NCBI GenBank assembly: GCA_963825135.1
Contig: CAWGRW010000010.1
Coordinates: forward strand, 32,001 to 96,000
Reading direction: 5' to 3'
Source: an uncultured bacterium
GTDB taxonomy: Bacteria > Desulfobacterota_D > UBA1144 > Nemesobacterales > UBA2774
DNA length: 64,000 nucleotides
A program made the translations under genes and the position numbers. Below are positions 9,363 to 41,068 of this stretch, piece by piece. The number at the start of each line of letters is the position of its first letter. Within the stretch, counting starts at the first letter, position 1. Below the pieces are notes generated by a model. It searched no databases. It worked only from the letters and a program-made list of their open reading frames with translations, and was not told the DNA's origin.

Positions 9363-9938
9363 TTATCCGGCCAGCGCTTTCTCGATACGGCGGTCAGGGA
9401 TGAGCCACATAGCGGCAACCAGGACGTACAGGGCACAGGCAATCCACGAATTCACAAAGGAAAGCGGTATTGCCAGAGCGTAGAGCACAAGAGATGCTTT
9501 TCCCTTGAAGTCCCGGCCGACCGCCGTCGCTAGAGTGGAATCCGTGCCCTGGTAGAATATGAGAGTGCGGGTGAGGATAACATAAGCGAACCCGGCTAAT
9601 AACAGGGCCATTCCATAAAGTGCAACCGGCCAGGTAGCGAAGTGGTTTTCACCCATCCATCCCGTAGCGAAAGGGATTAGCGACAACCAGAATAACAGGT
9701 TCATGTTAGCCCACAGAATACGGCCGTTAACCTGCCGGACCGCCTGTAACAGATGATGGTGATTGTTCCAGTATATCCCGATGTAAATAAAACTAAGCAC
9801 ATAACTCAGTAATTTCGGTATCAGCGGGCGGAGCGCACCCAAACCGGCCTCATGCGGTATCGTCAATTCCAACACCATGATGGTGATAATTATGGCAATG
9901 ACGCCATCGCTGAATGCTTCTAATCTTCCTTTAGTCAT
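9363..9938 (-). CDS. TMEM175-family (DUF1211) potassium channel
   Basis: RLEAFSDGVIAIIITIMVLE and YWNNHH signatures. Confidence 0.93.
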   Translation of the reverse strand: MTKGRLEAFSDGVIAIIITIMVLELTIPHEAGLGALRPLIPKLLSYVLSFIYIGIYWNNHHHLLQAVRQVNGRILWANMNLLFWLSLIPFATGWMGENHFATWPVALYGMALLLAGFAYVILTRTLIFYQGTDSTLATAVGRDFKGKASLVLYALAIPLSFVNSWIACALYVLVAAMWLIPDRRIEKALAG

Positions 9939-10197
9939 TTGCGATCTCTACATTTCCGATTCTGACGGGGGTACTTTTTCGCTTCACAATTGAGAGTCAA
10001 TAATTATAAATTTTTCACACAAGGTGAGCCTCGATTCGGGGATATTACTCATCAGCGTTATCCAGAGAGAGTATTCGGGGTCTCGCCGGAGAATGTGATT
10101 TGCGTGGGGTGACTCTTCGTGCAGACACCCCAGGCGCCTTCGCCGAGGGTGTCCGGCTAATTATCACGGACTGCCCAACCAGGTGATGCGAGAAGCG

Positions 10198-10704
10198 TTA
10201 GCGACTCTTGCGCGGGGCGCGTCTTTTGGGGTCTCCGTTAACGTCCGGAACTTCTTCGCCGAGGGCTGTGGCCAAATCGATTTGATGGTCCTGCTCCTGT
10301 ATCAGGATCTGGCGAATTTGTTCCGCCATCGCGTATTCTCCCAGCGTTTCACACTGCCGGATGCGGTCGCGGTAATTGCGAATGGTTTCGTTTTCATTCT
10401 CGAGATCGTAACGGAGCATGTCTTTCGGATTCTTCGATGTGCGTACAGGCTTGGGGGTGACCACAGGCATTTTGCCGAGATAATCGATCTGCCGCGAAAG
10501 GATCAGGGCATGATCGAGCTCCTGTTTGGCGTGGATTTCGAGCTGGGCGGCGATGTTCATGTATTGGGCGCCGCTTAGCACCTGGGAATAGACCACGTAG
10601 GCTATGATGGCTTGATATTCGCGGGAAAGGTCTTCATTCAACAGCTCCGCGAGGCGGTCGCGGGAAATTTCGTTTTTGTTCGCGGCGGATTTGTGTTTAG
10701 CCAT
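10198..10704 (-). CDS. Ferritin-like / bacterioferritin-family protein
   Basis: EDLSREYQAIIAY, ELDHA and EQDH di-iron motifs; GGAGG RBS. Confidence 0.88.
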   Translation of the reverse strand: MAKHKSAANKNEISRDRLAELLNEDLSREYQAIIAYVVYSQVLSGAQYMNIAAQLEIHAKQELDHALILSRQIDYLGKMPVVTPKPVRTSKNPKDMLRYDLENENETIRNYRDRIRQCETLGEYAMAEQIRQILIQEQDHQIDLATALGEEVPDVNGDPKRRAPRKSR

Positions 10705-14779: not shown

Positions 14780-16644
14780 CTACTCGAACAATTCGGGGAG
14801 AGGGTTTCCGGTCGCGCCGTTGGGGTATGGTATTTTGAGGAGCGCCGAGACCGTAGGCGCTATGTCGGTGATGTTCACGGGACGCATGGATTCCCCCTTC
14901 TTGATGTTATGCCCGTAGAATATGAGCGGGACGTGCGTGTCGTAGTCGTAAGGCGCCCCGTGCGTCGTCCCTTTCTTGGCGTACGCAGCATTGAACTCAA
15001 TCCACGAGGGCTCCATTATCACGATGACATCGCCCGATCTCTTCCTGTTGTAGCCGTTCTCGACAAGCTGTCTCGCCCCGGTCGTGAAATCCGCCGCGTT
15101 GAGCTCGGACGCCGTTACCACGTCGGCGACACCGTCGAGCGTCATGAGAAACGAAGCTGCTTCCTTCTCCACGTTTTCGAGGGACAACCCTATGTCCCTT
15201 ATCAGGTCGCGGTCGAGGTACACCTGCTGATTATTGTATGCAAGGACGAACTCTGAGACCACCCGGTCCGAATACCTTACCGAGGTGCTTGTTGAGCCTG
15301 TTCTCGTGTTAATCGTCGTCGAGGAAATACCCGGAGGGCACTCCTATGTCCTGCAGATAGAGGGGGCCGTCCCCGACGCCGTGGTCGGCTGTGAGGAAGA
15401 CGAGGTAGTTGTCTTCTCCGATCTCCGCGTCGAGCGCGTTCAGGAGGTCGGCGATGTCGAGATCGACCCTGAGATACGCGTCTTCGACCTCGACGGACCT
15501 CGGGCCCGTAGTAATGCCCGATTATGTCGGTCGATGAAAAGCTGACGGCGAGGAAGTCCGTAACGTCGTCCTTCCCGAGCCCCTCCCCCCTGACCGCGGC
15601 AAGGGCGAAGTCCTTGGTCATCGAGTTCCCGAAGGGCGTAGCCTTTATGAGTTTCCCGTACTGCCCCTTCGTCTCCGCCTTGTTCCCGGCGAGGACGTCT
15701 TTCAGGACGTAGGGGAAGACGGGTTTTCCGTACTCCCCTGTCTCTTCGTCCCTGCCCCTGATAGATTTCTCATAGACGTTGTCGTCGGGCAGGCTCTCGC
15801 TGTAGGTAGATATGTCCCGGAGCGTATTCCACACGCCGTCTATGCCGGGCTTGTTCACGTATTTTTCGGCGGAATATTTCGCGTTGAAGTCCTCCACCCA
15901 GGCGGGGAGCGCGGGCTTCGCCCCTTCGGGCAATTTCACGCCGCGGTAATAATACGTGCTCGTGACCCACCGGCCGCTCTCGTCGTCGAGCCAGTACGCG
16001 GCGTTCCCCAGGTGCCCCGCCGGCATTATCGCGGCCCTGTCCTTGAGCGCAATGCCTATCACTTTGGATTTCATGTTCGTGGCCAGCCTCAATTCGTCCG
16101 TCACCGTCGTGGTGAGTAAATTGCGCGGCGAGAGCTGCCCGGCCTCCGCGGCCTCGCCCGCGATTCCCCCTACGAGACCGGCCGTCGTGTCGCGGGCGCA
16201 GTAGGTCTCGCCCCTCTCGGGGGCCCTGACGAACCAGTCGTTGCCGATTATGCCGTGGACGGAGGGAGCGGCGCCCGTGTATATGGACGCGTGACCGGGA
16301 CAGGTCGTAGTCGGCACGTAGCTGTATCTCGCGTCCCTGAAGCTAAACCCGTCGTCCGTGAGCCTGTTGAAGCCGTCATCGCCGTACCTGTCCCTGAACC
16401 TGTCCAGGAAATCGTACGCCATCTGGTCGACGACTATCCCCACGACGAGCCTCGGCGGCGCGTCCTCTTTGGTTTCCTCGCCGGGCGCGGGGCTCCGGGC
16501 CGGCCCCAATGTCGGATGCGGGACGTTCTGCCGGCTAGATACATGCGCCCTCTCCCGCTCCGGCTGCCTGCACGAGAGCAGTAACGAGAGCGCGAGAAAA
16601 ATTGCGATGGCGCATATAATCCGGGGTTTTATAGGGTGTTTCAT
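14780..16644 (-). CDS. PafA-type alkaline phosphatase family lipoprotein, frameshifted (~15503 and ~15270-15300)
   Basis: GIVVDQM, TCPGHASIYTG, SFSSTD..GH, LTADHG in shifted frame, HGAPYDYDTHVPL. Confidence 0.88.
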
Positions 16645-20887: not shown

Positions 20888-22138
20888 TCAAGACGAGCGC
20901 CTCCCGAGAATCCTCTCTCCGGCCGAACGGGTGAGCTTCCCCGTGCGTCTCACGAGCTCGAACACGGAATACATGACCAGATGCCATGCGCTCCCCATGC
21001 CGAAGACGTGCTGGAGGAATCCGGGGAACCCGGAAACCCTGGCAAGCAGATTCTTCCCGCCGTTTTCGCCCGAATAGGAATTCCAGAGAAACCTGAGCTC
21101 TACGAGCCCGACCAGGACACCCGGGGGCCTCGTCCTCACGCCGTATTCGAAACGCGCGGCCTTCGTCACGGGGACCGAATCCAGTTTTCGGAGGACCGCA
21201 TCGGGCACGCGAGATTCCGGATACCGGTTCAGATACCTGAGCGCTTCCCCGACGGCAAGCGCCTTTCCGTGCCTCTCCGCCCCTGAGGCGACCCTCTCCC
21301 AGTCAAGCCCCTCCCCTTCCTTACGCACTATGGCGGCCGCGTCGGCCACCCACCTTATGGGCGGGACTCTATTCCACGCGACCCCGTGCGCGCATACCTG
21401 GAGGAGCTGATCGGCGGGGTCGAGCGCGAGCGCCTTTACCCCCTCTACGCTTATGCTCCGCGCCCCTTCCCAGAAAGAGTCGTCCGCGTCGGGCCGGTTG
21501 TAGCCGTGGAGGAGGTGCCAGTGGAGGTCTATGGTGAACTGCGCGGGGTTGGTGAAGTCCTGCCCGTGCCTGACTGTGAAATATTCATCGGTATAGTCCT
21601 GAACGCCCCTCTCCCCCGGCGTCCATCCGAGCCTCGAGAGGAGCTTCATATCCGTAAAGCCCTTGAGCGGGGTGACGGAAGAGCGCCATCCGAGCCCCGT
21701 GATTATATCTATCGCCTCGCGCACGCGCGAGGTCGGGACGAGCAGGTCGGCGTCCATCATCGGGCGCGTGCCCGGGTCGCTGTAATAGAGTAGCGCGAGC
21801 GCCGAGCCCTTGAGGAGTATCGCCGGCATGCCGCGGCCGTTTAACTCCTGGAGGAGTGCCGAGAGCCTGCCGTAGAGCGTCCTGTTGTTGGAGAGTGTCT
21901 TCGCGTAGACCCAGCCGAAAATGTTCATGAGCGGGTCGCCGATGCCCATGGATTTGAGATTGACGTAGAGGAGGGGGAAGAGCCTGTAGGAGCCGGGGTC
22001 GACCGCGCCCATGTCGGCCGACGACTTCCATTCAAGAAAGGCGTCCACGGCTTCATCCCCGGTCAGTATGCAGGCCTTTAGCAGCAGCTCCTGCGGGCGG
22101 GTGGGCCAGCATCCGCCGTCGTTTATCAGTCCGCTCAT
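20888..22138 (-). CDS. Uncharacterised nucleotidyltransferase family protein (PF14907-like, common in lasso/HprK-associated clusters)
   Basis: LLKGSALALLYY...RPMMDADLLV, IDLHW, RWVAD motifs. Confidence 0.9.
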   Translation of the reverse strand: MSGLINDGGCWPTRPQELLLKACILTGDEAVDAFLEWKSSADMGAVDPGSYRLFPLLYVNLKSMGIGDPLMNIFGWVYAKTLSNNRTLYGRLSALLQELNGRGMPAILLKGSALALLYYSDPGTRPMMDADLLVPTSRVREAIDIITGLGWRSSVTPLKGFTDMKLLSRLGWTPGERGVQDYTDEYFTVRHGQDFTNPAQFTIDLHWHLLHGYNRPDADDSFWEGARSISVEGVKALALDPADQLLQVCAHGVAWNRVPPIRWVADAAAIVRKEGEGLDWERVASGAERHGKALAVGEALRYLNRYPESRVPDAVLRKLDSVPVTKAARFEYGVRTRPPGVLVGLVELRFLWNSYSGENGGKNLLARVSGFPGFLQHVFGMGSAWHLVMYSVFELVRRTGKLTRSAGERILGRRSS

Positions 22139-22262
22139 ATTATCATTTCCCCGACCGGACTATTATCTATAATAGAAACGAATGTAACAAGCGAGGGATA
22201 AGGAGGAATTGTTCGTGCGGGATAGGGCTCAAATCGGATGCGCAGGCCTCTGTACAGGTTAC

Positions 22263-22406
22263 CGCGTCCGCTGTAGCAAGGTTGAGCCCCCGGTTAAGCA
22301 TCATCACGGAAATAACGGTCGGGATGATGAACGCGCCCCAGGTCGCATTCTCCCGGAACTCGCGCCTTTCCGGGTTTATGCTTTAAAGAAATTTCTTTTC
22401 GCCCAT
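22263..22406 (-). pseudogene. Degenerate precursor-peptide copy
   Basis: MGEKKFL*SINPERREFRENATWGAFIIPTVISVMMLNRGLNLATADA; in-frame TAA at 22383-22385 plus several substitutions. Confidence 0.8.
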
Positions 22407-22497
22407 TCGATTATCTCCGGCTTACCGGATATGAATCAATATAAACCGCAATACATGCGAAGAATAGCTAATACTATAATCTTCCAGGCGGCGCGGT

Positions 22498-22695
22498 TTA
22501 TGGAACAGGCATAGGAACCGCCCCATCGTTACTCTGGGCGTTCGCGGTCGTGAGGTTGAGCTTCTGGTTAAGCATCATCACGGAAATAACGGTCGGGATG
22601 ATGAATGCGCCCTTGGTCACTCTCTCCAGAAACTCGCGCCGTTCGGGATTCACGTCTTTAAGGAACCCTTTGGCGGCCTTCTCGTCGTCACTCAT
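22498..22695 (-). CDS. Putative RiPP precursor peptide, 65 aa (tail QSNDGAVPMPVP)
   Basis: GGAGG RBS; conserved RREFL...FIIPTV...TTANAQSN block shared with four other copies. Confidence 0.88.
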   Translation of the reverse strand: MSDDEKAAKGFLKDVNPERREFLERVTKGAFIIPTVISVMMLNQKLNLTTANAQSNDGAVPMPVP

Positions 22696-22815
22696 CAGTC
22701 ATCCTCCGGAAGCAGAATTTATTATAGTTTATAATATATAAACCTGCGTAAAATGCAACCAGGGACAGAAAATTTTTGTTAGTGCGAGAAAGGTACGGAC
22801 AGGGCGTCCGGCAGC

Positions 22816-23923
22816 TCAGGATTTTTTAAGGAGAGCGGATATGAATTTGTGCTTCGTTCGGTATTCGGGGTTCTCAGGGTCCCGCGCGAGGGCGAGGGCG
22901 TAGCATCGCCCGCTCTCTTCGAGCCTGCCCAGCTTGAAATAGCACGTTCCCATGGGCTCGTACGAGAACTCGCGGAATATCCTGCTGTCGTACGAGATCC
23001 TGCCGGGGTCTATACCGTCGGGATCGACCGACGCGAGACTCCCGAAGAGCGCGGCCGCCTCCCCGTATGCGCCTCCGTGCATTAGCACCATGGCCCTGAC
23101 CCAGATCATCAGGTAATTGTCCGGGAACAGTGTCTCCGCTTCTTTCAGAACCCCGGAGTAGTCCTCGTCCTTTTCGAGCAGGAGCCTGATCAGATCGTAA
23201 TACGGCTGGCAGTCCCTGGGCACGATATCCTTTCTGCCCCGGATAGTATCTATCGCCCGCCGCCACTCCCGCTCCGCCCCCTCCGTATCGCCCAGGGCCT
23301 TGAGCACGGTGCCGAGCTTGTATCTGAGAAAGGAAATATCCGGATGGTCCTCGACGTGCTTACTGCAGAAGCGGCAGGTTCCTCCTGTGCTTGCGGCCCA
23401 TCTCCCCGTCATACCCGAGGTGGTCGATCTCGAGAATGGAATTCCCTATGGCAAGCCCCTCTTCCTCCCCCACCCTCGTGACGGAAGGGAGCACGGTCTC
23501 GTGTATTATCCCCTCGAACCTTATCCTCGGGTCGTTCCGGAATATCCTGAATTCCCTGAAAGGGGTAAACCCGGTGATCGGCCGGTAATTGACCGTAAAC
23601 GCGGCGTATCCGGGCCGCGAGAGGTCGGCTTTGACGAGGGATTTATCGACCGATCTCAGCCTCTCGTCGGCGTCTATGTAGAGTATCCATTCCCCCAGGC
23701 AGCGGTCGACGGACACGTTGCGGGCGGCGGAGAAGTCGTCCCGCCACGGGAAATCGAAGAGCCTCGCGCCGTACCGGGCCGCGATCTCCTTCGTCCGGTC
23801 GGTCGATCCCGTATCGACGATGACTATCTCGTCCGCTACGTCTTTAAGCGATTCGAGACAGCCTTCGAGGAAACGCTCCTCGTTACGCACGATCATGGCG
23901 GCTGAAAGGAATATATCGTTCAA
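22816..23923 (-). CDS. GT2 glycosyltransferase with TPR-like C-terminus (SunS-like architecture), one-base frameshift at ~23362
   Basis: MIVRNEE, VDTGSTD, FSAARN, IDADE, IHE; colinear with 27146-28267 after removing one T. Confidence 0.88.
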
Positions 23924-24092
23924 TGCCGGTTAACCCTGAAACAATGATAACAGGAAGGAATCAATAAGAAACACGATATCATCTATAGATACGGAGCAGC
24001 ACGACGGCCGCTTTCATCCGGCACATGACCGGGGCCGGATATTCCAGGCCGTACCGGCCTGCCGCCCCCGCGCCTCCGTCCGTTTCCGGCTA

Positions 24093-24254
24093 TCAGTTGT
24101 CGTTACTCTGGGCGTTGGCGGTTGTGAGGTTCAATTTCTGGTTCAGCATCATCACGGATATTACGGTCGGGATGATGAACGCACCCTTGGTAACCTTCTC
24201 CAGGAACTCGCGCCTTTCGGGGTTTACGTCTTCGAGGAATTTCTTTTGGCTCAT
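24093..24254 (-). CDS. Putative RiPP precursor peptide, 53 aa (tail QSNDN), not in ORF track
   Basis: MSQKKFLEDVNPERREFLEKVTKGAFIIPTVISVMMLNQKLNLTTANAQSNDN*; GGAG RBS. Confidence 0.88.
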   Translation of the reverse strand: MSQKKFLEDVNPERREFLEKVTKGAFIIPTVISVMMLNQKLNLTTANAQSNDN

Positions 24255-24358
24255 TCGAGTATCTCCAGTTTATTGGATTGTGCGTCAATATGCCGCGGAT
24301 CCCGTTTCATTGCGCGTCTCAGCCGCTATGACACTGCACGGAATCGCAACCGGCTCTG

Positions 24359-24514
24359 TTACCCGTCGTTGCTCTGGGCGTTGGCGGTGGTGAGGTTCAA
24401 TTTCTGGTTCAGCATCATCACGGATATTACGGTAGGGATGATGAACGCGCCCTTGGTAACCTTCTCCAGGAACTCGCGCCTTTCGGGGTTTACGTCTTCG
24501 AAGAACTTCTTCAT
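24359..24514 (-). CDS. Putative RiPP precursor peptide, 51 aa (tail QSNDG; alternative GTG start at 24520), not in ORF track
   Basis: MKKFFEDVNPERREFLEKVTKGAFIIPTVISVMMLNQKLNLTTANAQSNDG*; GGAGG RBS. Confidence 0.88.
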   Translation of the reverse strand: MKKFFEDVNPERREFLEKVTKGAFIIPTVISVMMLNQKLNLTTANAQSNDG

Positions 24515-24644
24515 AGCCACGGACAGCCTCCAAACATTCGATTTATCAGAAATATATCATATCGCGGATCGACATACAAGCAATATTTGCAGAATTCCGG
24601 ATAAGTTACACACGACAACATTTCCCGGCGGCGCAGGGACTTTA

Positions 24645-26401
24645 TCAGAGGGAGCGCATGTATTCGAGGAGCTGCTGCTGGGAGCCCTCGTTGGTCCATC
24701 TGTTCTCGATCCACCGGGCCCCCTGCATGGCGCGTATGAGGTGGCTGCCGTAATTCCGGTACACGTCCCATACCGCGTCCTCTATGTCGCCCAGGCTGAC
24801 CCTGTCCCACTGCCCGTAGGCATTCCCTTCGTAGTTCGCATCTTCCTTCCCGCAGACCGGTATGACCTTACAGAAACCGGATTCGATTATCTCCCGGTGG
24901 ACCGGAATATCGGTCAGAAGCGTCGGTATGCCCAGATACATGCTTTCGCGAGGGGTGAAAGACCACCCCTCCCCGCTCGACGGGAAGACGTAACATGAAA
25001 GATTACGGTACCATTCGCCCGTCCGCTCGTCGGTCCACTCCCCCCAGGTCCATTCGACGAACGGGGAGCGTTCCATCAGGGCGACCTCGGGCGTGTACAT
25101 ACCCCGCATAAACATGGAGGAATGAACGACGAGCCTGAGCCCGGGGATTTTCCCCAGGAGATTCACGCACGCCTGATAGAGTTTGAATAAATTTTTTCTC
25201 TTGTAAGGCACGCCCAGGAACCCGATCCTGAAAACGTCGCCCCGGGGCTTGATAGAGGACCTCCTGTCGTACCTCGTGAACCCCTGCTGTATAGCGGCGA
25301 CCGGGATTCTGACGCCCGAGGATTCGAACACCCCCTTCATGTATTCATGAGGGACGATACAGCGGGCGTAATGCTCGTTAATCGGCTTTATCCAGTGACG
25401 GGGAATCTCCGACGTCTCGAACGTAGTATAAGCTACGTTGATATTTCCCTTCGAAAGCCTGTCGGTAAAAAACGGCGCCATACCGGCAACCAGGACCTTT
25501 TTGCTCGAGAGATGCTTCGTATCTTTCACGACCGTGCCGATAACGCTCGAACGGTCGTACACCGTGGTCAGGCCGTCGAAGGGCTTTTCCTTGTATATCC
25601 GGAGCACGTATATATCGTCGGGAATATTTATTCCGGCGATTTTCGAATCTATCCCGCGGCGGATACCGGCGGCAGCCGCCGCGCTCACCTTCTTCCTTGA
25701 GCCGCCCGCGTATTCGGGCGATCCCTTCTTGTGCTCCCACCTCCAGGAAGCCTCGTGGTGGTGCCTGCCGTAGTTCCCGAAATGGCAAGCTACCGCCCCC
25801 GTTACGGGACATATGCGGTCGGGGTTCGGGAGGAGCACCACGTCCCTGAGCTTTTGCCTGCAGTCGTGATACACCGTGGTTACGAGGCCGGGGCCGGTGG
25901 ATTCGAGGACGTCGTTCTCGGTCAGTATTTCGCGGCGCGACTCCCGTGCCATCTTTCTCAGTATATGGAGCAGGAACGGGTGGCCGGGCTCGCTCCCGAA
26001 CATGTAGTTCGCCACGCGGAGTCGGTCCCTGTGTCCGAGCCTCAGGGCCGTCTCCACGGTCAGCGTCGATTCCTCGCCGAACACGCAGCGGAATTCGCAA
26101 AGCCCGTCGAGCGGGTTAAGGCACTCGACGTCCATGTCCATATAAAACCCGCCCTCCCCGTAAACGACTACGATGCGGAATATATCGGTCCTCTGAATGA
26201 CCGACGCGCGGTCGTAAACCGGGAGGAACTCGGGGAAGAACCTTGTTCAACGGCGTCCCTGCACGCCTCATCGTCGTAGAATTTGTATTCCCAGGCGGGA
26301 TGGAGGGCGATGAGGTTCTCCCTGTAACGGCGGTACTTCGCCGGAACGTCCTCGTTCTTATACGTCTGGTGGATTATCCTGGGGATGGCCATGTTCGTCA
26401 C
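24645..26401 (-). CDS. Two-domain glycosyltransferase: GT32/OCH1-like DXD domain fused to GT4-like GT-B domain; frameshift at ~26242
   Basis: IPRIIHQTY...DIFR....GGFYMDMD, STGP; C-terminal YKRKN and FPSSGEGWSFTPRESM. Confidence 0.85.
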
Positions 26402-26418
26402 GAATCTCCGCCGCAGCT

Positions 26419-27153
26419 CTATCCTTCTATTCCGTCCAGCAGGCGCGACGCCTCTTCCCCGGTGTACCTGCCGTCGAGTATGCCTTTAATTATCGAGGTC
26501 GATTCCGCCGAAAGCTCGCTCGACGCGCTGAATATCTTCTCCCAGTGCTCTCTCGTGCACAGGTTGTTACCGTGATAAACGTATATATAGAGCTTCGGCA
26601 TCATCACGGGGAAAATGAGGCTCCGCTTGAAGAGCTCCCTTATGAGGTACGTATCCTCGTGCCGGAAGACTTCCTCGTACCTGAGATCGCCGCCGAGTAA
26701 CGATTTCCTGCACAGGAGCGACCCCTCCCACGGCCTCCTGTTGGATAGATAGGCCTTACCCGTACGCTCGTCATACATGAGCCAGTGAAATAGAAGGCAC
26801 GCGGGCAGCCCGCTCGCCTTGATCACGTCCATCTGGAACGAGAGCCTGTCGCGGTGAGACCAGTCGTCGTCGTCCCATTGGCAGAAATACTCCCCGCGGC
26901 ACTCCGCCAGGGAACGGTTTCTCAGTCTGCCGAGATTAAATCCTTCGGAAGAAGGCAGCTCGACTAAAATGAGATTATGATCTTCCAGGGCTCTCACGTA
27001 TTCGGCCGTCTCTCCGTCATCGCTCTCGTAGAGTATTACGAGCTCCTTCCGAGGATACGTCTGGTCCCTGAAGGACTGAACGGCCCTTTGGAGGAGCTTC
27101 TTCCTGCCGTGCGTAACGCAGAGGCACGATATGAGCGGCATGTCGTCATTCAT
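26419..27153 (-). CDS. GT2 family glycosyltransferase
   Basis: PLISCLCVT, QTYPRKELVI, GRLRN, QWDDDD, ED motif. Confidence 0.92.
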   Translation of the reverse strand: MNDDMPLISCLCVTHGRKKLLQRAVQSFRDQTYPRKELVILYESDDGETAEYVRALEDHNLILVELPSSEGFNLGRLRNRSLAECRGEYFCQWDDDDWSHRDRLSFQMDVIKASGLPACLLFHWLMYDERTGKAYLSNRRPWEGSLLCRKSLLGGDLRYEEVFRHEDTYLIRELFKRSLIFPVMMPKLYIYVYHGNNLCTREHWEKIFSASSELSAESTSIIKGILDGRYTGEEASRLLDGIEG

Positions 27154-28267
27154 GTCGGGTCCCGGTTTTTTTCAGCAGCGCGCCCAAGAATTTGCGTTTG
27201 GTTTCATACTCATGGTTGCCGGGGCGGAGCTCGGCCGCGAGCGAATAGTATTTGAGGCTCTCCCCGTATCTTCCGAGCTTGAAAAGACAGGCCGCGAGAG
27301 GCTCATAGGAAAGCTCGCCGAATATGGCGGTGTTGTACGAGAGGGGGCCTTCGACCAGGGTCTCGGGGTCAACGGAAACGAGCGATTCGAGGAGCGGGAC
27401 GGCTTCTTCGAAACGGCGGCTCCGCGCGAGCGTCACCGCCCTGGTCCATATCAGGAGATAGTTGTCGGGGAAGAGGCGGAGGGCCTCGTCGAGGAGCGCG
27501 GAGGAGTCCCCGCCCTTGTCGTTGAGAAGACAGATCATTTCATAAAACGCGTGACTGTCCTCGTGCGTCACGGTCTCTTTCCGGCGCGATATTTCCATGG
27601 CTTCCGTCCACGTCTTTTCGGCCGCGTCCGGGTCTCCGAGGCCCTTCAGGGCCACGCCCAGCTGCCACCTGAGATACATCCTCTGCGGCTCGTTCTCTAT
27701 CTGTTTTATGAGCAGGGGGAGGTTCCTCCCGTGCTTTTGCAGGAGGTCCCCGTCGTAGCCGGTGTGGTCTATGGCGAGGGGGCAGTCGCCGATGCCCATC
27801 CCGTTCTCTTCCATGAAGACCTCGATCGAGGGGAATATGGTCTCGTGAATGGTGTTGCAGAACCGTATGCGGGGGTCGTTCCTGAAAATCCGGTATTCCT
27901 TGTACGCGGTATAGCCACCTATGGGGTGGAACCTGACGGTATAGACGGCAATCTTCGTGTCGGAAAGTATCCGCGTTACCTCTTCCCTGCTCACGGGTCT
28001 GAGCCTCTCGTCAGCGTCTATGTAGAGTATCCATTCGCCGCGGCAGTGATCGAGGGACTCGTTGCGTGCGGCTGAGAAATCGTCCCGCCAGGGGAAATCG
28101 AAGACCCTCGCGCCGTACCGGGAAGCGATCTCCTTCGTCCGGTCGGTCGATCCCGTATCGACGATGACTATCTCGTCGACCACGTCCCTGATGGATTCGA
28201 GACAGCCTTCGAGGAATCGCTCTTCGTTGCGCACGATCATGGAGGCCGAAAAGATTATATCGCTCAA
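27146..28267 (-). CDS. GT2 glycosyltransferase with TPR-like C-terminus (SunS-like architecture)
   Basis: TTG start inferred from the paralogue; MIVRNEE, VDTGSTD, IDADE, IHE, then helical repeats. Confidence 0.9.
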   Translation of the reverse strand: MSDIIFSASMIVRNEERFLEGCLESIRDVVDEIVIVDTGSTDRTKEIASRYGARVFDFPWRDDFSAARNESLDHCRGEWILYIDADERLRPVSREEVTRILSDTKIAVYTVRFHPIGGYTAYKEYRIFRNDPRIRFCNTIHETIFPSIEVFMEENGMGIGDCPLAIDHTGYDGDLLQKHGRNLPLLIKQIENEPQRMYLRWQLGVALKGLGDPDAAEKTWTEAMEISRRKETVTHEDSHAFYEMICLLNDKGGDSSALLDEALRLFPDNYLLIWTRAVTLARSRRFEEAVPLLESLVSVDPETLVEGPLSYNTAIFGELSYEPLAACLFKLGRYGESLKYYSLAAELRPGNHEYETKRKFLGALLKKTGTRHE

Positions 28268-28403
28268 TTCCTCATCACCAGGATTAAATAATAACCGGAG
28301 AGGACGCGTACCAAAACGGCGGGGAACAGGAAATATAAAACTCGGGGGACGGGACGCGTGCCCGTGAAAAGCGGATTGCCGGGTCACAAAAGGCGTCCGG
28401 GCT

Positions 28404-29021
28404 TTAACCGCAGTAAGGCTGATCTTCCGGCAAAAGGAGCTTACGAATGAAGAACTTCGAATCCGGGGCAAGCGTGCTGCCCAGAGGAATTCCGTTTGCG
28501 AAGTAAAATCCGGTCTCGCCGGAAGGCAGGAGGTCGTACGTATGACCGGCCTCGTACCGGACCTTCTCTATCGATAACAGCACCGCTCCGTCCAATGTGT
28601 CGCCCGGCAAGAGATCGCCTGCTTCCCCGGCGTCCGTGGTAGGATGCCCCGGAGACACGAACAATTCTCTGCCGTCATTCAAAACCAGACGACAAAGGGT
28701 ATGGTCTCCCGGAACCGACGCCTTCGACACGAGCTCTATCGGTCTTACGACCTTGTTTCCGTTCGAGTCGAGGGTGAATACCGGCATCCCCGGCCTTAAA
28801 TCGACGATGGAAACGTCCCCGTCCGGGGTCGAGATCAGGGTCGCCGCAGACAGGCACGGCGCTGTCCCGTTGCTCTGGGCGTTTGCCGTCGTGAGATGGA
28901 GCTTCTGATTGAGCATCATCACGGAAATGACCGTCGGTATAACGAACGCGCCCTTCGTAAGCTTCTCGAGGAACTCGCGCCTCTCGGGATTAACGCCGTC
29001 CAGAAACCTTTTGTCACTCAT
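28404..29021 (-). CDS. Precursor peptide fused to a C-terminal Hint (Hedgehog/intein) domain
   Basis: aa 1-55 match the precursor family; Hint motifs C56LSAATLISTPDG, SPGHP, TYDL, FYFANGIPLGS. Confidence 0.9.
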   Translation of the reverse strand: MSDKRFLDGVNPERREFLEKLTKGAFVIPTVISVMMLNQKLHLTTANAQSNGTAPCLSAATLISTPDGDVSIVDLRPGMPVFTLDSNGNKVVRPIELVSKASVPGDHTLCRLVLNDGRELFVSPGHPTTDAGEAGDLLPGDTLDGAVLLSIEKVRYEAGHTYDLLPSGETGFYFANGIPLGSTLAPDSKFFIRKLLLPEDQPYCG

Positions 29022-29059: not shown

Positions 29060-29896
29060 TTATATCACAGACATTTTTTCCTGTAAACCCGAGACGGCCC
29101 CATCGAGATCGCCTATATAAAGCAGATAGCAATGAGCGCTGTCTATCAGCCCGCATAGCCCGCCGATTTTCAAATGGTCGTTTGTCTCCGAAAGGAAGCT
29201 CATGGGCATAATTTTCTCGACCATGCGGTATTTGGGGCACTCCTCTATACGCGTCTCTCCGCCGTGATTCCGTACGAGATAGAAGACGGCGCTGACTTCC
29301 CCCTCGTCGATCTTCCAGGGGCGTCCCGCGTCGAGGGGCGTAAACGAGTACATCTTCTGTTTATTGTAGGTGATGTTGTACGGGAGCGATTCGAAGGGCG
29401 GCTTCATTTTCGGCAAAAGACCCGTGCTCTCCTGTTTGATGTTGAACCGCCTCGGGAACGGTATGGCCTTGCAGTCCCGGACAAGCGCGAGCTCGTCCCC
29501 GACGACCCGAAATCCCGCCAGCACCAGACTGACCATGAGCGTGGTCTTCCCGGCTCCCTTGTCCCCGACGACAAGGAACCTCTTCCCGTTCCATTCCGCG
29601 CACCCGGCGTGAATGCGTATCCTGTCCGTGATCCCGGAAAGCACCTCCTTGTGCATGAGCCACTGGAGGTTGAAGATCGTGGCGCTGAGGTCGCCCGAGG
29701 AGTGGCGGACCTCGCCGCTTCTCAGGACTTCATAAACGCCGTCCCTGACCCTCAATTCATAGAGGGCCTCGTTCGTGACGGGATAGTCCTGCTCCGCGTC
29801 GTGCACTATGAAATCGAGAAGGCGCGCCGATTCTTCGTCTTCGGTGCGTATGGTGAATGCGGTGTCGAGCAGTGTATGCCTGCGTTCGTGAATTAT
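29060..29896 (-). CDS. HprK-related P-loop kinase (start probably ATA at 29896; GTG 29806 in ORF track)
   Basis: IHAGCA, GDKGAGKTT, VGDE, PFPR motifs. Confidence 0.85.
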   Translation of the reverse strand: MIHERRHTLLDTAFTIRTEDEESARLLDFIVHDAEQDYPVTNEALYELRVRDGVYEVLRSGEVRHSSGDLSATIFNLQWLMHKEVLSGITDRIRIHAGCAEWNGKRFLVVGDKGAGKTTLMVSLVLAGFRVVGDELALVRDCKAIPFPRRFNIKQESTGLLPKMKPPFESLPYNITYNKQKMYSFTPLDAGRPWKIDEGEVSAVFYLVRNHGGETRIEECPKYRMVEKIMPMSFLSETNDHLKIGGLCGLIDSAHCYLLYIGDLDGAVSGLQEKMSVI

Positions 29897-30150
29897 TTGA
29901 CCAGTCCTTCCTGAATGAGCGTATTGAGGCAGTCGGCGACTTCTTTCTCCGGGTCCTCCGGGAGCTGATACGCCTCCCTCACGACCGCCGTGATATCGGC
30001 CAGAGAGTTTGTGCCCGTGCAGGCCTCGAGCACGAGCACCGCGGTCTTGTTGAGGTAGTGGACCTTATCCTTCTCGCTCTGGTAGATGACGTAGCCGTCC
30101 TCGACCTCGTTTATGTCTATGCCATCGGCTATTTTGGGGTATTCGCTCAT
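29893..30150 (-). CDS. PqqD-family RiPP recognition element
   Basis: 85 aa; HYLNKTAVLVLEAC.G....I.......Y...........L..EGLV. Confidence 0.93.
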   Translation of the reverse strand: MSEYPKIADGIDINEVEDGYVIYQSEKDKVHYLNKTAVLVLEACTGTNSLADITAVVREAYQLPEDPEKEVADCLNTLIQEGLVK

Positions 30151-30366: not shown

Positions 30367-30525
30367 CTATGACTGGGTCGAGTCGCCCGAGCCCGAACCT
30401 GTGGGCTGGTTTGACGTCGTGTCCTTATCCTTTCCGCCGCAGGCGAGTACGTTAGACGTAGTCAATACTATTCCGCCGAGCGCTATCCCCAATGTAATTG
30501 CCAGTGCAAATAATACCTTTTTCAT
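30367..30525 (-). CDS. 52-aa Ser/Thr/Gly-rich secreted peptide or lipopeptide, not in ORF track
   Basis: MKKVLFALAITLGIALGGIVLTTSNVLA-CGGKDKDTTSNQPTGSGSGDSTQS*; GGGAGGT RBS; own terminator. Confidence 0.8.
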   Translation of the reverse strand: MKKVLFALAITLGIALGGIVLTTSNVLACGGKDKDTTSNQPTGSGSGDSTQS

Positions 30526-30642: not shown

Positions 30643-31479
30643 TCAAGGCTTCCTCGTCCACGCGCTTATCCAGGTGTTCGACATGCCCACTCTGTCGGCC
30701 GCCCCGACGTCCGCGGCTTCGGCGGCGAGTCTCTCCTTGAGCGTGTCGATGCCGACTTCGTCCGCCGTAGCGATGCCGAGCTTCTCCATCATCGGCAAGA
30801 GGCTCTTTATAGTGCTGACGAACCAGTCAATACCCGGGGAGTTCGCCCCGCCCACGAACGCGTCCATGTGCATCGCGGGCTCGGGAAGTCCGGCCTTCAT
30901 ATAGACCGGGAGGAGCTTGAACCCCATCTGCATCTCCGTCCCCGACTTTTCCATAGCGGCGTACAGCCAGTCCCAGAGCTTCATGAACAGCGGAAAAGGC
31001 GGTATCGCCACGGGGCGTATCGTAAAGTCCACCTCCTGGAAAACGACCACTCCGCCCGGCTTCACGTGCCGGACAAGCGTCGTCAGGACCTTGACCGGCT
31101 CGGGCACGTACATCAGCACCGCCCGCCCGGCAAGCGCGTCGAACACCCCCTCGGGCTCGGCCGCGCCGATATCGCCGACGACGAACCTGATATTGGCGAA
31201 GCCCCTTTCCAGGGCCCGCTTTTTCGCCGTCTCCTGAATCTCCGGGTTCCTCTCTATGCTGACGACCTCACCCTTGGGCCCCACCATCTCGGCCAGCAGC
31301 AGCGCCACGTCCCCGGCCCCCGTGCCTAGCTCCAGCACCCTCATGCCCTTCCCGATGCCCGCGAGCTCGAATATCCTCTCCGTCGTCCGGATAATTATCC
31401 GCGACTGTTCCTCGAGCCGCTTCTTCTCGTTCTCCGTGTCGCTGAGCGCGTATTCTTTCTTAATGTCGCTATCCGCCAT
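30643..31479 (-). CDS. Class I SAM-dependent methyltransferase
   Basis: VLELGTGAGD, FDALAGRAVLMY, VKPGG. Confidence 0.92.
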   Translation of the reverse strand: MADSDIKKEYALSDTENEKKRLEEQSRIIIRTTERIFELAGIGKGMRVLELGTGAGDVALLLAEMVGPKGEVVSIERNPEIQETAKKRALERGFANIRFVVGDIGAAEPEGVFDALAGRAVLMYVPEPVKVLTTLVRHVKPGGVVVFQEVDFTIRPVAIPPFPLFMKLWDWLYAAMEKSGTEMQMGFKLLPVYMKAGLPEPAMHMDAFVGGANSPGIDWFVSTIKSLLPMMEKLGIATADEVGIDTLKERLAAEAADVGAADRVGMSNTWISAWTRKP

Positions 31480-33167: not shown

Positions 33168-34476
33168 ATGAGCGGCAATAGGAAATGGATAAAGAGCCTC
33201 AGGCTCGACTTCAGATACGAGAGCTACAATATAGCGCTCGTATCCCAGACCCGTATCGAGATCATCCCCCCGCCATCCGATCCGGTAGATCAGGCGGATG
33301 ATTACAACGGATACTATGTAAAGCTAACCGACGGAGAGGGACGTGTTTTCTACGTCCAGCGGCTGCAGAACCCTTTCCGCACCGAAACCGAGTCGTACGG
33401 CGACGATGCGCCCGGCCCGATCACTTACGAAAGCCTCAAAGACCCGGACCTGACGTTCTCGATCCTGATTCCCGACCCCGGGGCCGTTTTTACCCTCGAA
33501 ATCATAAACAACCCGCTGCTGCCGGAGATGTTTTTTAGAATAGCGAGGCAGTCGTTCGCATTTACGGTCGACCCCGCGGAAGTAATACTGCGGCCGATGG
33601 CAGTCGCCAGGATTGTTGAGAACGGGGCAGTCCTGGGGAAGGAGAAGATCGTCGATCACGGGAAGGACAATGAATGCTGGAATATCTCGATTCTCGCGGA
33701 AGGCTACAAGGCGGAAGAAATCCCTAAATTCGTTTCCGATGCGAATAGCTTCATAAACGTATTTAAGAATTTCGCGCCGTTCAACGAATTCTGGGAGAAG
33801 ACAAACGTATATATTTTAAAAGTCGCGTCCACGGACAGCGGCGCTGACTTGCCGGCTCAATGTCAGGGGGGAAGTCCCCCGGTCGATGTGCGAACTTATT
33901 TTAACGCCAGCTTCTGCGGCGCCGCTCAACCAGAAGCGTCTCCTGGTCGTGGATCAGAGGACGGCGAAAAAGGTTTGGGATATGTGGATTCCGCAGGCGC
34001 ATATCGCGTTTGCCATGGTAAACAGCGCGATCTACGGCGGGTCAGGGGGGAATGTCCCGGTTTTTTCGACCAACTCCCTCTCCGCCCTTATCGGCATTCA
34101 CGAGCTCGGGCATAGCTTATTCAAGCTGGCGGACGAATACGAATCGCCCTATATCAACGATAACCCGGATAACTATCCGAATTTAACCAGTCAGACCGCT
34201 CCGTCGCAAATAAAATGGAAGGACTTGATAGCACCCACGACCCCCGTCCCGACGTCGAGGAACCAATGTCCGGGCGGAAACCCCGTTTCCCACCCCGTAC
34301 CTGAGGGCACAGTGGGGCTTTTCGAGGGAGGGCTTTACAAGTCCTGTAATGTGTTCAGATCCGAGAAGAACTGCCTGATGCGTGATTTCGGGAAGAAGCG
34401 GTTCTGCGCGGTGTGCACAAAAACCATCCGCAATAAGCTTTCGGAGTTATTGCAGATCGACGTGCCTATCGTTTAG
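33168..34476 (+). CDS. M64 (IgA peptidase-like) zinc metallopeptidase, frameshift at ~33921
   Basis: LAEGY, HELGHSLFKLADEY, GLFEGG, CLMR..FCAVC. Confidence 0.85.
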
Positions 34477-34624
34477 CTCCGCATCCGCACCCGCCCCGGT
34501 ACTTCCTCTCACCTCCCCCTCCCCCAGCATGTGTCATAGCTATTGTCTGTGGGCCAATCAATCTCTTGCTCTAATGGCATCCGGTGGTTAATATAGGACG
34601 AACCTACGGTTCTAGGTCAACAAA

Positions 34625-34677
34625 GCACCACATATTGACGTCTAACCCTTGACAAACACAAGATGTTGTGGTTTAAT
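34625..34677 (+). promoter_or_regulatory. Tandem NrdR-like boxes overlapping a sigma70 promoter
   Basis: GCACCACATATTGACG (34625) and ACACAAGATGTTGTGG (34656), 31 bp apart; TTGACA-N17-TTTAAT. Confidence 0.65.
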
Positions 34678-34862
34678 CGGTAATATGTGATGGGTAAGCC
34701 TATGCGAACCTAAAACTGAAAGAGGGCGTGTTGTCGCACGCCCCCGTTTTGTCCTCACTCCATCTGTTGAGATGGGAAAGGAGTTAGTAGTTTGCGCTCA
34801 TTATAATCTCCATGTTCCCAAATTTCAACAAAACCAAATGGAATTGAGGAAGGAGGCCCATT

Positions 34863-35039
34863 ATGGGCAAAACACTAAAGCCGGGAGAAAAAGCCCCGGC
34901 CTCAGGCCAGTACCGAAACACACGTACTGGCAACGAAGTTACAGTTGTGAGGGGTGAACCTTTACCGCCAACTCCTAGATCCGGTCAAGGTTATACACTT
35001 GTAGACTTGACCAAGCACAAGCCTAGCGGAAGACGGTGA
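34863..35039 (+). CDS. YjzC-like small protein, 58 aa, not in ORF track
   Basis: MGKTLKPGEKAPASGQY...VRGEPLPPTP..GQGYTLVD; GGAGG RBS. Confidence 0.85.
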   Translation: MGKTLKPGEKAPASGQYRNTRTGNEVTVVRGEPLPPTPRSGQGYTLVDLTKHKPSGRR

Positions 35040-35391
35040 GGTGTTAAAGGGGAGGAAGGGGAAATATAATGCTTATCCTCCCCTTGAATTCTAATTTATC
35101 ATGTGCAAGAATTACTTAATTATTATAGTTATCTCAGAAACAATGTAGGAGGTTCAGAAAATACAAGCCCCGATTACTAAGTACATCTTCAACTCTATTT
35201 ACATCTGCTTAATATTCTACGGTATTTTATTTGCTATTCCTTGTTACTCAGAATCTGAGTTCACGACGGAAACTTCCTTCTGCTCAATAAATATTTCTTA
35301 CGGTAAATTTTCAGACATTTTAGATGAATTAAGGAGTTTTACAAAAAATGCAAACAAAAATTTCAAGCAATGGAAAGTTACCGAGTATTTA

Positions 35392-35970
35392 GTGTTAGGA
35401 GATAAAAATGTACGAATTAAAATAGAGAATGAGTTTAATGAATCTGCATTCAACCAAGGTCCGAAAATTGCTAATGACCTTTATTACAAGTATGAAAATT
35501 TTGATGCGCCTATCTCGACCATAGAACTTAGATTAAGTGATTACGTTAGAACCTTAACAATAACGGGTTATGATAAAACACAGGTAAATGCACTTGCATC
35601 ATTAATAAAGGATGAATTCAATCTTGTAGGATGCTCTATCGGTGGTCTTAATCACCGAGCTATTATTTATATTGTACTGGGAGTATCAGCATTGATTGTA
35701 TATTTCTTTACTGTAAAATATTTCGTGACAACTGAAAGAATTGCTTTGTTGCTATATTTCATGTTTGTTCTTTTTTATTTCATTCTTATATATACCTTAC
35801 CTTGGGATTTATGGTTTTCTGGTGCAACAATCCGATCTAGTCCTCTTTCTTTTTTAGATCGCCATGCAGGGTTATTATCGTTACTCGGTATTCTGGTATC
35901 AATTTTATTACCCATATCAGCACATTTTGTAAAAAAAACAATTACGAGAAAATCTTCAGGAAACCTTTAA
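35392..35970 (+). CDS. Low-GC membrane protein (true start probably further upstream)
   Basis: AT-rich ORF with three C-terminal TM helices. Confidence 0.6.
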   Translation: MLGDKNVRIKIENEFNESAFNQGPKIANDLYYKYENFDAPISTIELRLSDYVRTLTITGYDKTQVNALASLIKDEFNLVGCSIGGLNHRAIIYIVLGVSALIVYFFTVKYFVTTERIALLLYFMFVLFYFILIYTLPWDLWFSGATIRSSPLSFLDRHAGLLSLLGILVSILLPISAHFVKKTITRKSSGNL

Positions 35971-36002
35971 GAACCGATTGTTCTAGATCATCATGCAATA
36001 AA

Positions 36003-40060: not shown

Positions 40061-41068
40061 GGTAATGTGCAAGCACATATGGCGGTATTCCCTACAATGG
40101 GGGATATGAGCATATGTATGGCAAAAACGATTAAAGAAGAGCGATTAAGGTGGGTGCTGCCCATTGTTCAAAAAGAGATAAAATTGGTCGAAGCAGCAAG
40201 AGTTTGTCCGTACAGCACACGAAGCCTGGAGCGGTGGGTGGCTGAATACCGGCGGGGTGGAGAAACCGCCTGGAGCCAAAATCAACCGCGCGCAAGACAC
40301 AAGAGAAAGAAACACCAATTCGCATTAAGGAACATATCGTAGAACTGAGGAAACGGACCAAGAAATGCGCCTTGAAGTTGCATTGGCACATGAAGAAGGA
40401 GGGACTGGTTATTCCGCCAAGGACTATTGGTGAAATTTTGAAACGAGAGGGGTTGGTACGAAGATACAGAGTCAAGAGAATTAAATACAAATACATCAAG
40501 GCAGAGAGAAAACCGGGTGAGCTCATCGAGATCGACGTCAAATATGTGCCAGGACCCGTTGAAAACAGGCAGTATTTCCAATACACAGCAATAGATACGG
40601 CTTCCCGGTGGAGATATTTGGCCGTCTATGATGAACAAAACACCTACCACTCCATTTTGTTTCTAGAAGAAGTGGTGAAGCGGTTTCCTCACCCAATTGC
40701 AGCAGTCAAAACTGACAATCATTCAACATTTACTAACTATTACGTCGGCACGAATAAACGGAGCGATCTGACGGTAAAAACGTTACATGCCTTCGATCTT
40801 TTCTGCGCTTCACGCGGAATTATTCATTATCTCATCGATCCCGGTAAGCCGGCGCAGAACGGCACTGTTGAGCGGAGTCATCGGGAAGATGAAGAGAAGT
40901 TTTATCAAGAAAACACGTTCAAGAACTTTGATGATTTGCAAAAGAAGCTGAGACAGTGGAATATGTATTACAATAACCTTGAACACTGTGGATTGAGCGG
41001 TATGACGCCCAACGAATTTCTTGCAGATTACCAACTAACGAATCCGCCATATGTGCCTGCCTAAAACA
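40061..41068 (+). mobile_element. IS481-family insertion sequence; transposase 40107-41064 frameshifted at ~40270
   Basis: HTH plus rve core (EIDVKY, TDN, NGTVERSH); imperfect IRs sharing GCACATATGGCGG at both ends. Confidence 0.88.

Follow-up and report, generated by a model that had tools for sequence, protein, structure and literature searches.

A candidate LPP-like peptide cluster with twin-arginine-type leaders, built-in glycosyltransferases, and Hint-fused precursors in an uncultured bacterium

We analyzed a stretch of 64,000 nucleotides (the window; positions 32,001 to 96,000 of the forward strand of contig CAWGRW010000010.1, GenBank assembly GCA_963825135.1) from an uncultured Desulfobacterota_D bacterium. 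On its minus strand lies an 11-kb cluster in which four intact genes for small peptides with a nearly invariant leader, together with one decayed copy, are interspersed with genes for a PqqD-type recognition element of ribosomally synthesized peptides that are posttranslationally modified (RiPP recognition element [RRE]), an HprK-like kinase, four glycosyltransferases, and an NTP_transf_5 nucleotidyltransferase. The best overall explanation, to which we assign a probability of about 0.5, is that the peptides are modified-peptide precursors related to the linear polyphosphorylated peptide (LPP) family and that their leader of approximately 48 residues would be bifunctional, with export and leader removal through the general twin-arginine translocation (Tat) pathway and a LepB-type signal peptidase. 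The parts of this reading differ in strength: it is highly probable that the peptides are modified-peptide precursors of this cluster, and the assignment of Tat plus LepB as the route of export and cleavage is tentative. As a whole, the locus is probably an undescribed LPP-like variant that combines a leader of the Tat type with built-in glycosyltransferases and has a Hint domain as follower. An earlier note on this DNA had recognized the precursor family but had overlooked the glycosyltransferases, the kinase, and the fact that the Hint fusion is in our reading an alternative way for the same precursors to end.

In the proposed series of events, every biochemical step of which we infer from genes and motifs, the PqqD-type RRE would bind F26-x-x-P29-x-V31 in the cytoplasm and present the peptide to the enzymes. 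The HprK-like kinase would phosphorylate Ser50, invariant in the four intact precursors, and the GT2-TPR, GT2, and GT32-GT1 glycosyltransferases together with the NTP_transf_5 protein would add a sugar or phospho-sugar to this serine or to nearby residues, either directly or on the phosphate. Release from the RRE would then expose the signal, and RRxFLxK, a hydrophobic stretch of 14 residues, Lys40, and the ANA motif would route the decorated peptide through Tat, with the housekeeping LepB-type signal peptidase cutting after A48. The predicted product is a phospho- or glycopeptide of 4 to 13 residues with the form x-S-N-tail, often with an N-terminal Gln. In the Hint fusions, the domain would cut at Cys1, leaving the C terminus of the core either thioester activated or free.

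Precursor family and its variable tails

Three of the intact precursors are short. Precursor A (24359-24520, minus strand) and precursor B (24093-24254, minus strand) are each 53 amino acids (aa) long with the cores QSNDG and QSNDN, respectively, and precursor C (22498-22695, minus strand) is 65 aa long with the core QSNDGAVPMPVP, in which the tail DGAVPMPVP, of a type that recurs in other genomes, follows QSN. The fourth is a precursor-Hint fusion of 205 aa (28404-29021, minus strand), with the leader at residues 1-48, the core QSNGTAP, and the Hint domain starting from Cys56. The decayed copy (22167-22406, minus strand) is interrupted by an in-frame TAA at 22383-22385 (codon 8) and ends in a different, Cys-containing tail, for which no intact counterpart was found in 23 related loci. 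The four intact precursors share 41 invariant alignment columns, and 38 of the 42 positions from V10 to N51 are identical; the 42-residue block gives way, via x-Ser-Asn, to a short variable tail or to a tail and the Hint domain. A GGAG-type ribosome-binding site is visible by eye 6 to 7 bases 5' of the start in all five copies; a search for RNA records covering the locus found none. The block, the tails DN, DG, DGAVPMPVP, and GTAP-Hint, and the decayed copy, as well as the motifs ERREFL, FIIPTV, and ANA-QSN, are all present as the earlier note had described them.

Nei-Gojobori counts on the 42-codon block reproduce the claim that copies 24093 and 24359 have diverged only at synonymous sites (4 synonymous and 0 nonsynonymous differences), a pattern for which purifying selection or recent duplication had been offered. 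The remaining pairs of intact copies differ at 15 to 20 synonymous versus 2 to 4 nonsynonymous sites, with synonymous divergence (dS) of 0.9 to 2.1 (saturated) and a ratio of nonsynonymous to synonymous divergence (dN/dS) of 0.020 to 0.027. The block is thus kept by very strong purifying selection on a translated product, a pattern that recent duplication alone does not explain and that chance could not produce. Comparisons of the decayed copy with the others give a dN/dS of 0.10 to 0.34.

A word-indexed search retrieved 213 short relatives of 29 to 93 aa, and a profile that included divergent members retrieved 270, the best 120 of which belong to this same family only. All named relatives are annotated as "hypothetical protein" and come from metagenome-assembled genomes (MAGs) of Thermodesulfobacteriota or Candidatus Dadabacteria, and nearly all of the approximately 270 sequence clusters derive from MAGs of these two groups, uncultured bacteria of sediment and soil. 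A profile search of 1.84 billion representative sequences gave 16 matches at an E value of ≤0.001, two of which are long repeat proteins and seemingly spurious. Within the class, the precursor is present in 20 of 120 genomes at 1 to 9 copies each; carriers are centered on one family (18 of 32 genomes) with a patchy distribution by genus, and some genomes hold copies with internal stops. Additional copies also exist in the genome of the window itself, which contains one further copy in the form of a second leader-Hint fusion on contig 9 and a near-duplicate of it on a 3-kb contig. These multicopy relatives and the selection data uphold the earlier view of a family of precursor-like peptides in which the leader is invariant and the cores are short and vary. 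The short peptides match no Pfam or NCBIfam family at an E value of 0.01, and at an E value of 10 only subthreshold matches to TIGR04117, TIGR02811, and TIGR01409 appear; the leader profile matched no LPP entry among solved structures.

These distributions bear on the possibility that the real genes are ordinary exported Hint-domain proteins and that the short open reading frames (ORFs) are nonfunctional 5' fragments that duplication left behind, as the decayed copy in the window and the internal-stop copies of other genomes could suggest. Short forms outnumber fusions 166 to 18 among the relatives, possess ribosome-binding sites, evolve at a dN/dS of 0.02, and have tail types and stop codons that are conserved across genomes, and the clusters L015, L030, L031, and L033 contain short forms only. 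We consider this explanation scarcely credible, as the selection and distribution data already contradict it.

The earlier emphasis on the twin arginines and the AxA motif is borne out in an alignment of 55 members, including some of only 39 to 49% identity. R14, R15, F17, P29, M36, and A46 are invariant, and A48 is among the positions conserved in at least 90% of members, as are P12, E16, L18, K20, F26, V31, S33, and S50, among others. Distant members follow the pattern (S/E)RR(E/D/A)F(L/I/M)(K/E)K ... A(F/Y)xxPxV(V)SVSM ... AxA, such that the aromatic-x-x-P-x-aliphatic motif that had been pointed out in the window is retained as [F/Y]xxPxV even among them. It agrees with the motif [Y/W]xxPx[L/V/I/F/A] that RREs recognize in leaders of lasso peptides and LPP (PMC13381572).

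The tails were compared as 149 distinct short tails, with positions counted after AxA. Ser occupies position 2 in 143 of them and position 3 is mostly Asn; 145 tails are 4 to 13 residues long. Their composition is 22.5% Pro, 11% Asp, 11% Gly, 0.6% Lys plus Arg, and 0.5% Cys, and the C-terminal residue is Pro in 52 and Gly in 31. Because tail types such as DG-x-VP-x-P-x-P, DT-V-T/S-x-P-D/E, L-P-P-P-P, M/V/I-T-I/L-P, and V-V-V-M recur across genomes, the tails are variable yet nonrandom. An N-glycosylation sequon was rejected as a general modification site, as N-x-S/T with Asn at position 3 or 4 is found in only 45 of the 149 tails. The sequon is shifted by one in 10 of the 30 tails without Asn at position 3, and it may be relevant to a subclass of tails. 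As a separate observation, two precursors in the related loci L026 and L029 have collagen-like tails of 18 residues with G-P-T repeats, and a protein with collagen triple-helix repeats is encoded directly upstream of PqqD in L014 (7660-8757).

Cluster organization and relation to known peptide systems

In transcription order, the cluster begins with the PqqD-family peptide-binding protein, or RRE (29893-30150; 85 aa; PF05402 at 39.3 bits, above the cut-off; TIGR04353 at 29 bits versus a cut-off of 35), and the HprK-like P-loop kinase (29060-29806; 248 aa; TIGR04352 with an E value of 2.6e-16 and 59.6 bits versus a cut-off of 200; P-loop GDKGAGKT). The Hint-fused precursor is followed by GT2-TPR glycosyltransferase a (27146-28471; PF00535 at 83.7 bits plus TPR repeats; true start probably near 28261), a GT2 glycosyltransferase (26419-27153; 244 aa; PF00535 at 47 bits), and a fusion of GT32 (DXD sugar-binding region) and GT1 (24645-26401; PF00534). 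Short precursors A and B come next, then GT2-TPR glycosyltransferase b (22816-23923; PF00535 at the N terminus and TPR at the C terminus), short precursor C, the decayed copy, and finally the NTP_transf_5 nucleotidyltransferase (20888-22138; 416 aa; PF14907 at 135.9 bits; DAD motif). All of these genes are on the minus strand. A strong promoter-like site (11 of 12 matches) is located at 29087-29059, 5' of the Hint-fused precursor, and a terminator with a 20-bp stem at 30334-30289 separates the cluster from upstream genes for a small lipoprotein and a methyltransferase.

This organization is conserved. PqqD is found at the same position in 15 related loci, and both the HprK-like kinase and the GT2 gene (54 to 93% identical) are syntenic in relatives. 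Among the 23 related loci, 12 carry PqqD, kinase, GT2-TPR, GT2, and GT32-GT1 in the same order with 1 to 7 precursors interspersed, and in 10 of those 12 the NTP_transf_5 gene closes the cluster. The other 11 consist of contig ends, short contigs, four orphan copies, and a kinase-less variant. Pfam and NCBIfam scans found no transporter or peptidase gene in the cluster here, in L014, or in L032, nor was either found in the 12 complete related loci; an ABC transporter is likewise absent between 20888 and 31479 and from the matching part of L014 and L032.

Two glycosyltransferase genes in the window are split. GT2-TPR b is read as two overlapping ORFs with a frame switch at 23361-23363 (a frame change near 23361-23364), and GT32-GT1 is read as two ORFs with a switch at 26243 (near 26243-26248). 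In relatives, both are single ORFs, with GT2-TPR proteins of 368 to 373 aa and GT32-GT1 proteins of 582 to 583 aa containing PF04488 plus PF00534. Contigs of related strains from independent sequencing runs, in a comparison that did not span 22247-22687, have one base fewer at 23364 and two fewer at 26248, each in three of four runs. The breaks could reflect either decay of the cluster, which would fit the dead precursor copy, or indel errors in the assembly.

The closest published system appears to be the LPP family of Bacillota (Popov et al., Nat Commun 2026, PMC13381572). According to that paper, LPP clusters encode a SipW-like signal peptidase and an MsbA-like exporter, and the precursors carry YxxPxVLxHQxIxFETxxS, whose YxxP part is bound by the RRE. 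In the core, which starts with AQSNWK, Ser3 is polyphosphorylated by the HprK-like kinase, and the peptidase cuts between FET and AQS in an RRE-dependent manner. The NTP transferase was inactive in the host used, and the authors suspected an involvement of neighboring sugar genes; since LPP clusters are embedded in large polysaccharide loci, the partners that add the sugar could not be singled out (PMC13381572). In pseudomycoidin biosynthesis, the homologous NTP_transf-type protein PsmN is required for placing a hexose on phosphorylated Ser (PMC6993621).

By comparison with the LPP system (PMC13381572), the present cluster likewise encodes a discrete PqqD-type RRE, an HprK-like kinase, and an NTP_transf-type protein along with one to several precursors, which have a conserved N-terminal leader, a variable C terminus, and an aromatic-x-x-P-x-V motif. 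A conserved serine also follows the leader cleavage site, here presumed, at a distance of 2 to 3 residues, with A-Q-S-N here corresponding to the LPP core AQSN, and leader removal would similarly rely on signal-peptidase-type chemistry, which is only predicted here. There are also differences. Our cluster lacks the SipW-like peptidase and the MsbA-like exporter, and its genome lacks a SipW-type gene; the leader has RRxFLxK, a hydrophobic stretch, and AxA, whereas Tat, twin-arginine, and signal peptide have 0 mentions in the LPP paper. Three to four glycosyltransferases are fixed in the cluster, the cores are 4 to 13 residues long versus 45, some precursors are fused to Hint domains, and the host belongs to a different phylum. 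What is new here is the fixed set of glycosyltransferases, the Hint fusions, and the ultrashort length of the cores. Cassettes of the LPP and HPr-rel-A types are widespread; in this one, the glycosyltransferases belong invariably to a compact cluster of 11 kb whose cores are ultrashort, which makes the full modification chemistry directly testable.

Other systems share parts of this logic. Phosphorylated and phospho-glycosylated lasso peptides such as paeninodin and pseudomycoidin also combine an HprK-like kinase acting on a precursor serine, an NTP_transf-type protein, and guidance by an RRE, although there the modified serine is C terminal (PMC6993621), whereas here it lies near the N terminus of the core. 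We rejected a lasso peptide as the product, as neither an asparagine-synthetase-like cyclase nor a transglutaminase-like B2 protease was found among the cluster ORFs with Pfam and NCBIfam. The PqqD protein matched no LPP entry among solved structures, and its best match there is the lasso RRE TfuB1 (E value of 0.2). The HPr-rel-A system (kinase A, TIGR04352; PqqD chaperone, TIGR04353) has the same three-protein logic of chaperone, kinase, and nucleotidyltransferase, but both models score below their curated cut-offs in our cluster, and a literature search found no paper naming them. The same search found nothing describing Tat-type RiPP leaders or Dadabacteria RiPPs of this kind.

The GT2-TPR proteins share their architecture of a GT2 domain followed by TPR repeats with GmaR of Listeria and with SunS/ThuS of the glycocins. 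The best solved relatives of the GT2-TPR a enzyme are GmaR (E value of 2.8e-30, 109 bits), followed by 7msk and SunS (E values of 5e-16 to 1e-14, 57 to 62 bits). GmaR O-GlcNAcylates flagellin, and both GmaR and SunS-type enzymes are cytoplasmic and add sugars directly to Ser, Thr, or Cys of proteins and peptides. A glycocin of the SunS type was nevertheless rejected: TIGR04195 reaches 62 to 67 bits versus a cut-off of 350, Cys accounts for only 0.5% of tail residues, and, unlike in glycocins, the precursors contain no Cys-bridged helix-loop-helix and the cluster contains no C39 peptidase ABC transporter.

A divergent lineage (L032, L038, and L040, which all have one and the same precursor) bears on a possible link between Ser50 and the kinase. 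In these loci, PqqD, the precursor, GT2-TPR, GT2, and GT32-GT1 are kept, no HprK-like or NTP_transf_5 gene is present within 10 kb, and the precursor has V-V-G in place of x-S-N. Divergent lineages that bear the kinase retain the serine, as QSSN in L039 and L041 and as ASGN in L042 and L045. Because Ser is lost together with the kinase and kept where the kinase is kept, the pattern fits Ser50 as the putative kinase site, with sugars on at least one other acceptor, and we regard Ser50 as the probable target of the kinase. Separately, a Stealth-family sugar-phosphate transferase is encoded on the minus strand at the end of the L032 cluster (14827-15840), which is on the opposite strand from the cluster, and an extra GT32 gene is also found there; as a guess, the Stealth-family protein could be a replacement.

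Leader features and the route of export

The leader of the window peptides contains ERREFLEK, a hydrophobic stretch of 14 residues between Lys23 and Asn-Gln-Lys40, and AxA in the form of ANA. The RRxF(L/I/M) plus Lys pattern of Tat signals is present, with SRREFLKK in distant members. The genome encodes TatC (234 bits), two TatA/B proteins, and one LepB-type signal peptidase (162 bits), whereas the SipW-type peptidase model TIGR02228 found nothing in the genome (94% complete). Three of the four nearest named clusters in a language-model comparison, with scores of 0.85 to 0.87 that serve as leads only, are Tat-signal proteins, namely, a Rieske TAT-signal domain, the methylamine dehydrogenase light chain, and the iron hydrogenase small subunit. 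Tat is reportedly able to carry small, unstructured hydrophilic cargo, as credited to Richter et al. in 2007.

Distant precursors with SRREFLKK or SRRDFLKK plus [F/Y]xxPx[I/V] also adjoin a cassette of HprK-like, NTP_transf_5, and PqqD genes on an unrelated high-GC contig (L046), and a further distant precursor of this kind is found on a short contig (L047). The L046 cassette (6563-10243) consists of an HprK-like protein, an NTP_transf_5-like protein, PqqD, and a 460-aa methyltransferase-like protein with a PqqD-like end, followed by a precursor of 79 aa that starts with SRREFLKK and carries Y-T-A-P-V-I.

There are known Tat signals that double as binding sites for dedicated chaperones. As described in PMC3712460 and PMC3316669, TorA/TorD and DmsA/DmsD pair a twin-arginine signal with a dedicated chaperone that holds the unfinished substrate, and the hydrophobic part of the signal is also the site of the chaperone. 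The leader proposed here would resemble these in combining both functions, but in those systems the cargo is a large cofactor enzyme, whereas here it would be a few modified residues, with the RRE in the role of the chaperone. If the Tat and signal peptidase route is true, a general pathway could export a modified peptide in its folded or decorated state, and an RRE could act like a Tat chaperone.

Several observations weigh against the bifunctional-leader explanation. The Tat-signal models TIGR01409 and PF10518 do not match the window peptides at E values up to 10, and only a distant member (P0132) comes near TIGR01409, at 14.8 bits versus a cut-off of 16.7. Measured against seven plausible Tat signals of the same genome, the hydrophobic stretch begins later (10 residues after RR versus about 3 to 13), is more hydrophobic (Kyte-Doolittle value of 2.43 versus 1.6 to 2.1), and is farther from AxA, which itself ends 35 residues after RR versus 18 to 32. 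TatC is present in 116 of 120 genomes of the class, compared with 20 of 120 for the peptide, and hence does not discriminate. With respect to the LPP system (PMC13381572), 25 residues separate the motif from Ser here versus 19 there, the HQxIxFET part is absent here, and the motif of the main clade begins with Phe, whereas Tyr or Trp stands first in the published one, [Y/W]xxPx[L/V/I/F/A]. The joint loss of Ser and kinase comes from one lineage and represents one independent loss, and of the four glycosyltransferase genes in the window, two are out of frame. The combined Tat- and RRE-type reading of the earlier note therefore stands in part: RR, AxA, and [F/Y]xxPxV are conserved and the cluster has no transporter or peptidase, but no Tat-signal hidden Markov model reaches its threshold and the geometry of the signal is atypical.

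The same points could be accommodated if the peptides are modified precursors in which the RRE, the kinase, and the TPR glycosyltransferases merely recognize RR, the hydrophobic stretch, and AxA as surfaces, with export and leader removal carried out by unlinked proteins other than Tat and LepB. Export signals are usually far less conserved than this leader is over its whole length, which together with the subthreshold Tat models and the atypical geometry favors such a role, and the part of the LPP leader downstream of YxxP is needed by the enzymes (PMC13381572). However, LPP leaders work, in that same paper, without a stated RR and with a peptidase and exporter of their own, neither of which occurs in the 12 complete related loci, and RRxF(L/I/M) plus K and small residues at -3 and -1 persist in members of 39 to 49% identity and in the distant cassettes. 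We judge this alternative to be unlikely. The extreme conservation of the leader is best accounted for if the RRE, the enzymes, and export all impose constraints that overlap.

A further alternative is that the peptide stays uncleaved and is held in the membrane, with its N terminus inside and its tail, decorated with sugar, displayed outside, where it would anchor or prime a surface glycan. No part of the cluster is more constant than its three to four glycosyltransferases, which are kept in the kinase-less variant, the tails are short, acidic or neutral, Pro rich, and spacer-like, and LPP and related cassettes often lie in polysaccharide loci (PMC13381572). Against this, the hydrophobic stretch has only 14 residues flanked by Lys and Asn-Gln-Lys, a length that does not suffice to anchor a peptide stably in the membrane, AxA is conserved, as are some tail types across genomes, and the Hint fusions point to C-terminal chemistry on a released core. 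We regard membrane retention as quite improbable.

Hint fusions and neighboring genes

An alignment of 15 of the fusions shows that Cys56, S123-x-x-H126-P-T, and a D-L-L-P ... G-S-T block are invariant. TIGR01445 covers residues 56-127, starting at model position 1 on Cys56, at 21.8 bits (below the cut-off of 24.5), and PF13403 reaches 25.8 bits (below the cut-off of 28.4). The engineered intein 6dsl aligns to the domain over blocks B to G with an E value of 1.9e-4. The terminal His-Asn is missing, the invariant G-S-T takes the place of block G, and there is no C-extein. An AlphaFold2 model of the fusion built with the 15 sequences has a mean predicted local distance difference test score (pLDDT) of 48.4. 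As in Hedgehog-type and bacterial intein-like Hint domains, Cys1 and (S/T)xxH would serve N-terminal thioester formation and no C-extein is present, but here the domain is fused behind a 55-residue peptide precursor and both the penultimate His and the terminal Asn are replaced. This set of residues fits a domain capable of N-terminal thioester formation and cleavage only.

The tails that precede Cys1 (such as QSNMTVP, QSNVTI, QSNLPP, and QSNDD) match types of free tails, and in some genomes the gene at the same place has no Hint domain (L033). Based on both observations, we read the Hint domain as an optional, presumably self-removing follower and thus as an alternative C-terminal form of the same precursors. 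Among the papers listed by a literature search, none combined a Hint domain with RiPP terms. In such a follower, nature would have its own equivalent of the peptide thioester chemistry that is based on inteins. In its fullest form, the proposal would make this the first ribosomal peptide pathway to use general Tat and a housekeeping signal peptidase instead of an exporter and a leader peptidase of its own, with the RRE as a Tat proofreading chaperone that masks the hydrophobic core until Ser is both phosphorylated and glycosylated and with Hint as a self-removing follower that yields a core of 5 to 8 residues as a C-terminal thioester for ligation to a second molecule or for head-to-tail cyclization after leader removal; taken together, this combination is doubtful.

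The orphan leader-Hint fusion on contig 9 (L005; 2159725-2162883) is far from the cluster, and its near-exact duplicate (L006) is on the 3.2-kb contig 17. Beside both, on the opposite strand, is an ORF of 177 to 187 aa with a zinc-protease-like H-E-M-E-H motif.

Upstream of the cluster, a lipoprotein-like peptide of 52 aa (30367-30525, minus strand) has a signal ending in L-A-C and a mature part of 24 residues that is rich in Ser, Thr, and Gly and contains T-S-N-Q-P-T. Seven related loci encode it at the corresponding site ahead of PqqD, with 71 to 96% identity, and the sugar enzymes could have it as a second substrate. The adjacent methyltransferase (30643-31479, minus strand) matches PF01135 (protein-isoaspartate O-methyltransferase type) at 56 bits, has subthreshold matches to RiPP-associated methyltransferases of FxLD and ATP-grasp systems, and is represented in some related loci only (L011, L015, L026, and L028). 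In approximately half of the tails, position 4 is Asp and the next residue is Gly, Ala, Ser, Thr, or Asn. Isoaspartate-type methyltransferases convert sites of this sort into aspartimide or isoaspartate in other RiPPs. Elsewhere in the window, the stretches 8001-10000 and 34001-36000 are low in G+C (0.42 versus about 0.55) and an integrase-core gene is located at 40372-41061, features that may mark acquired DNA.

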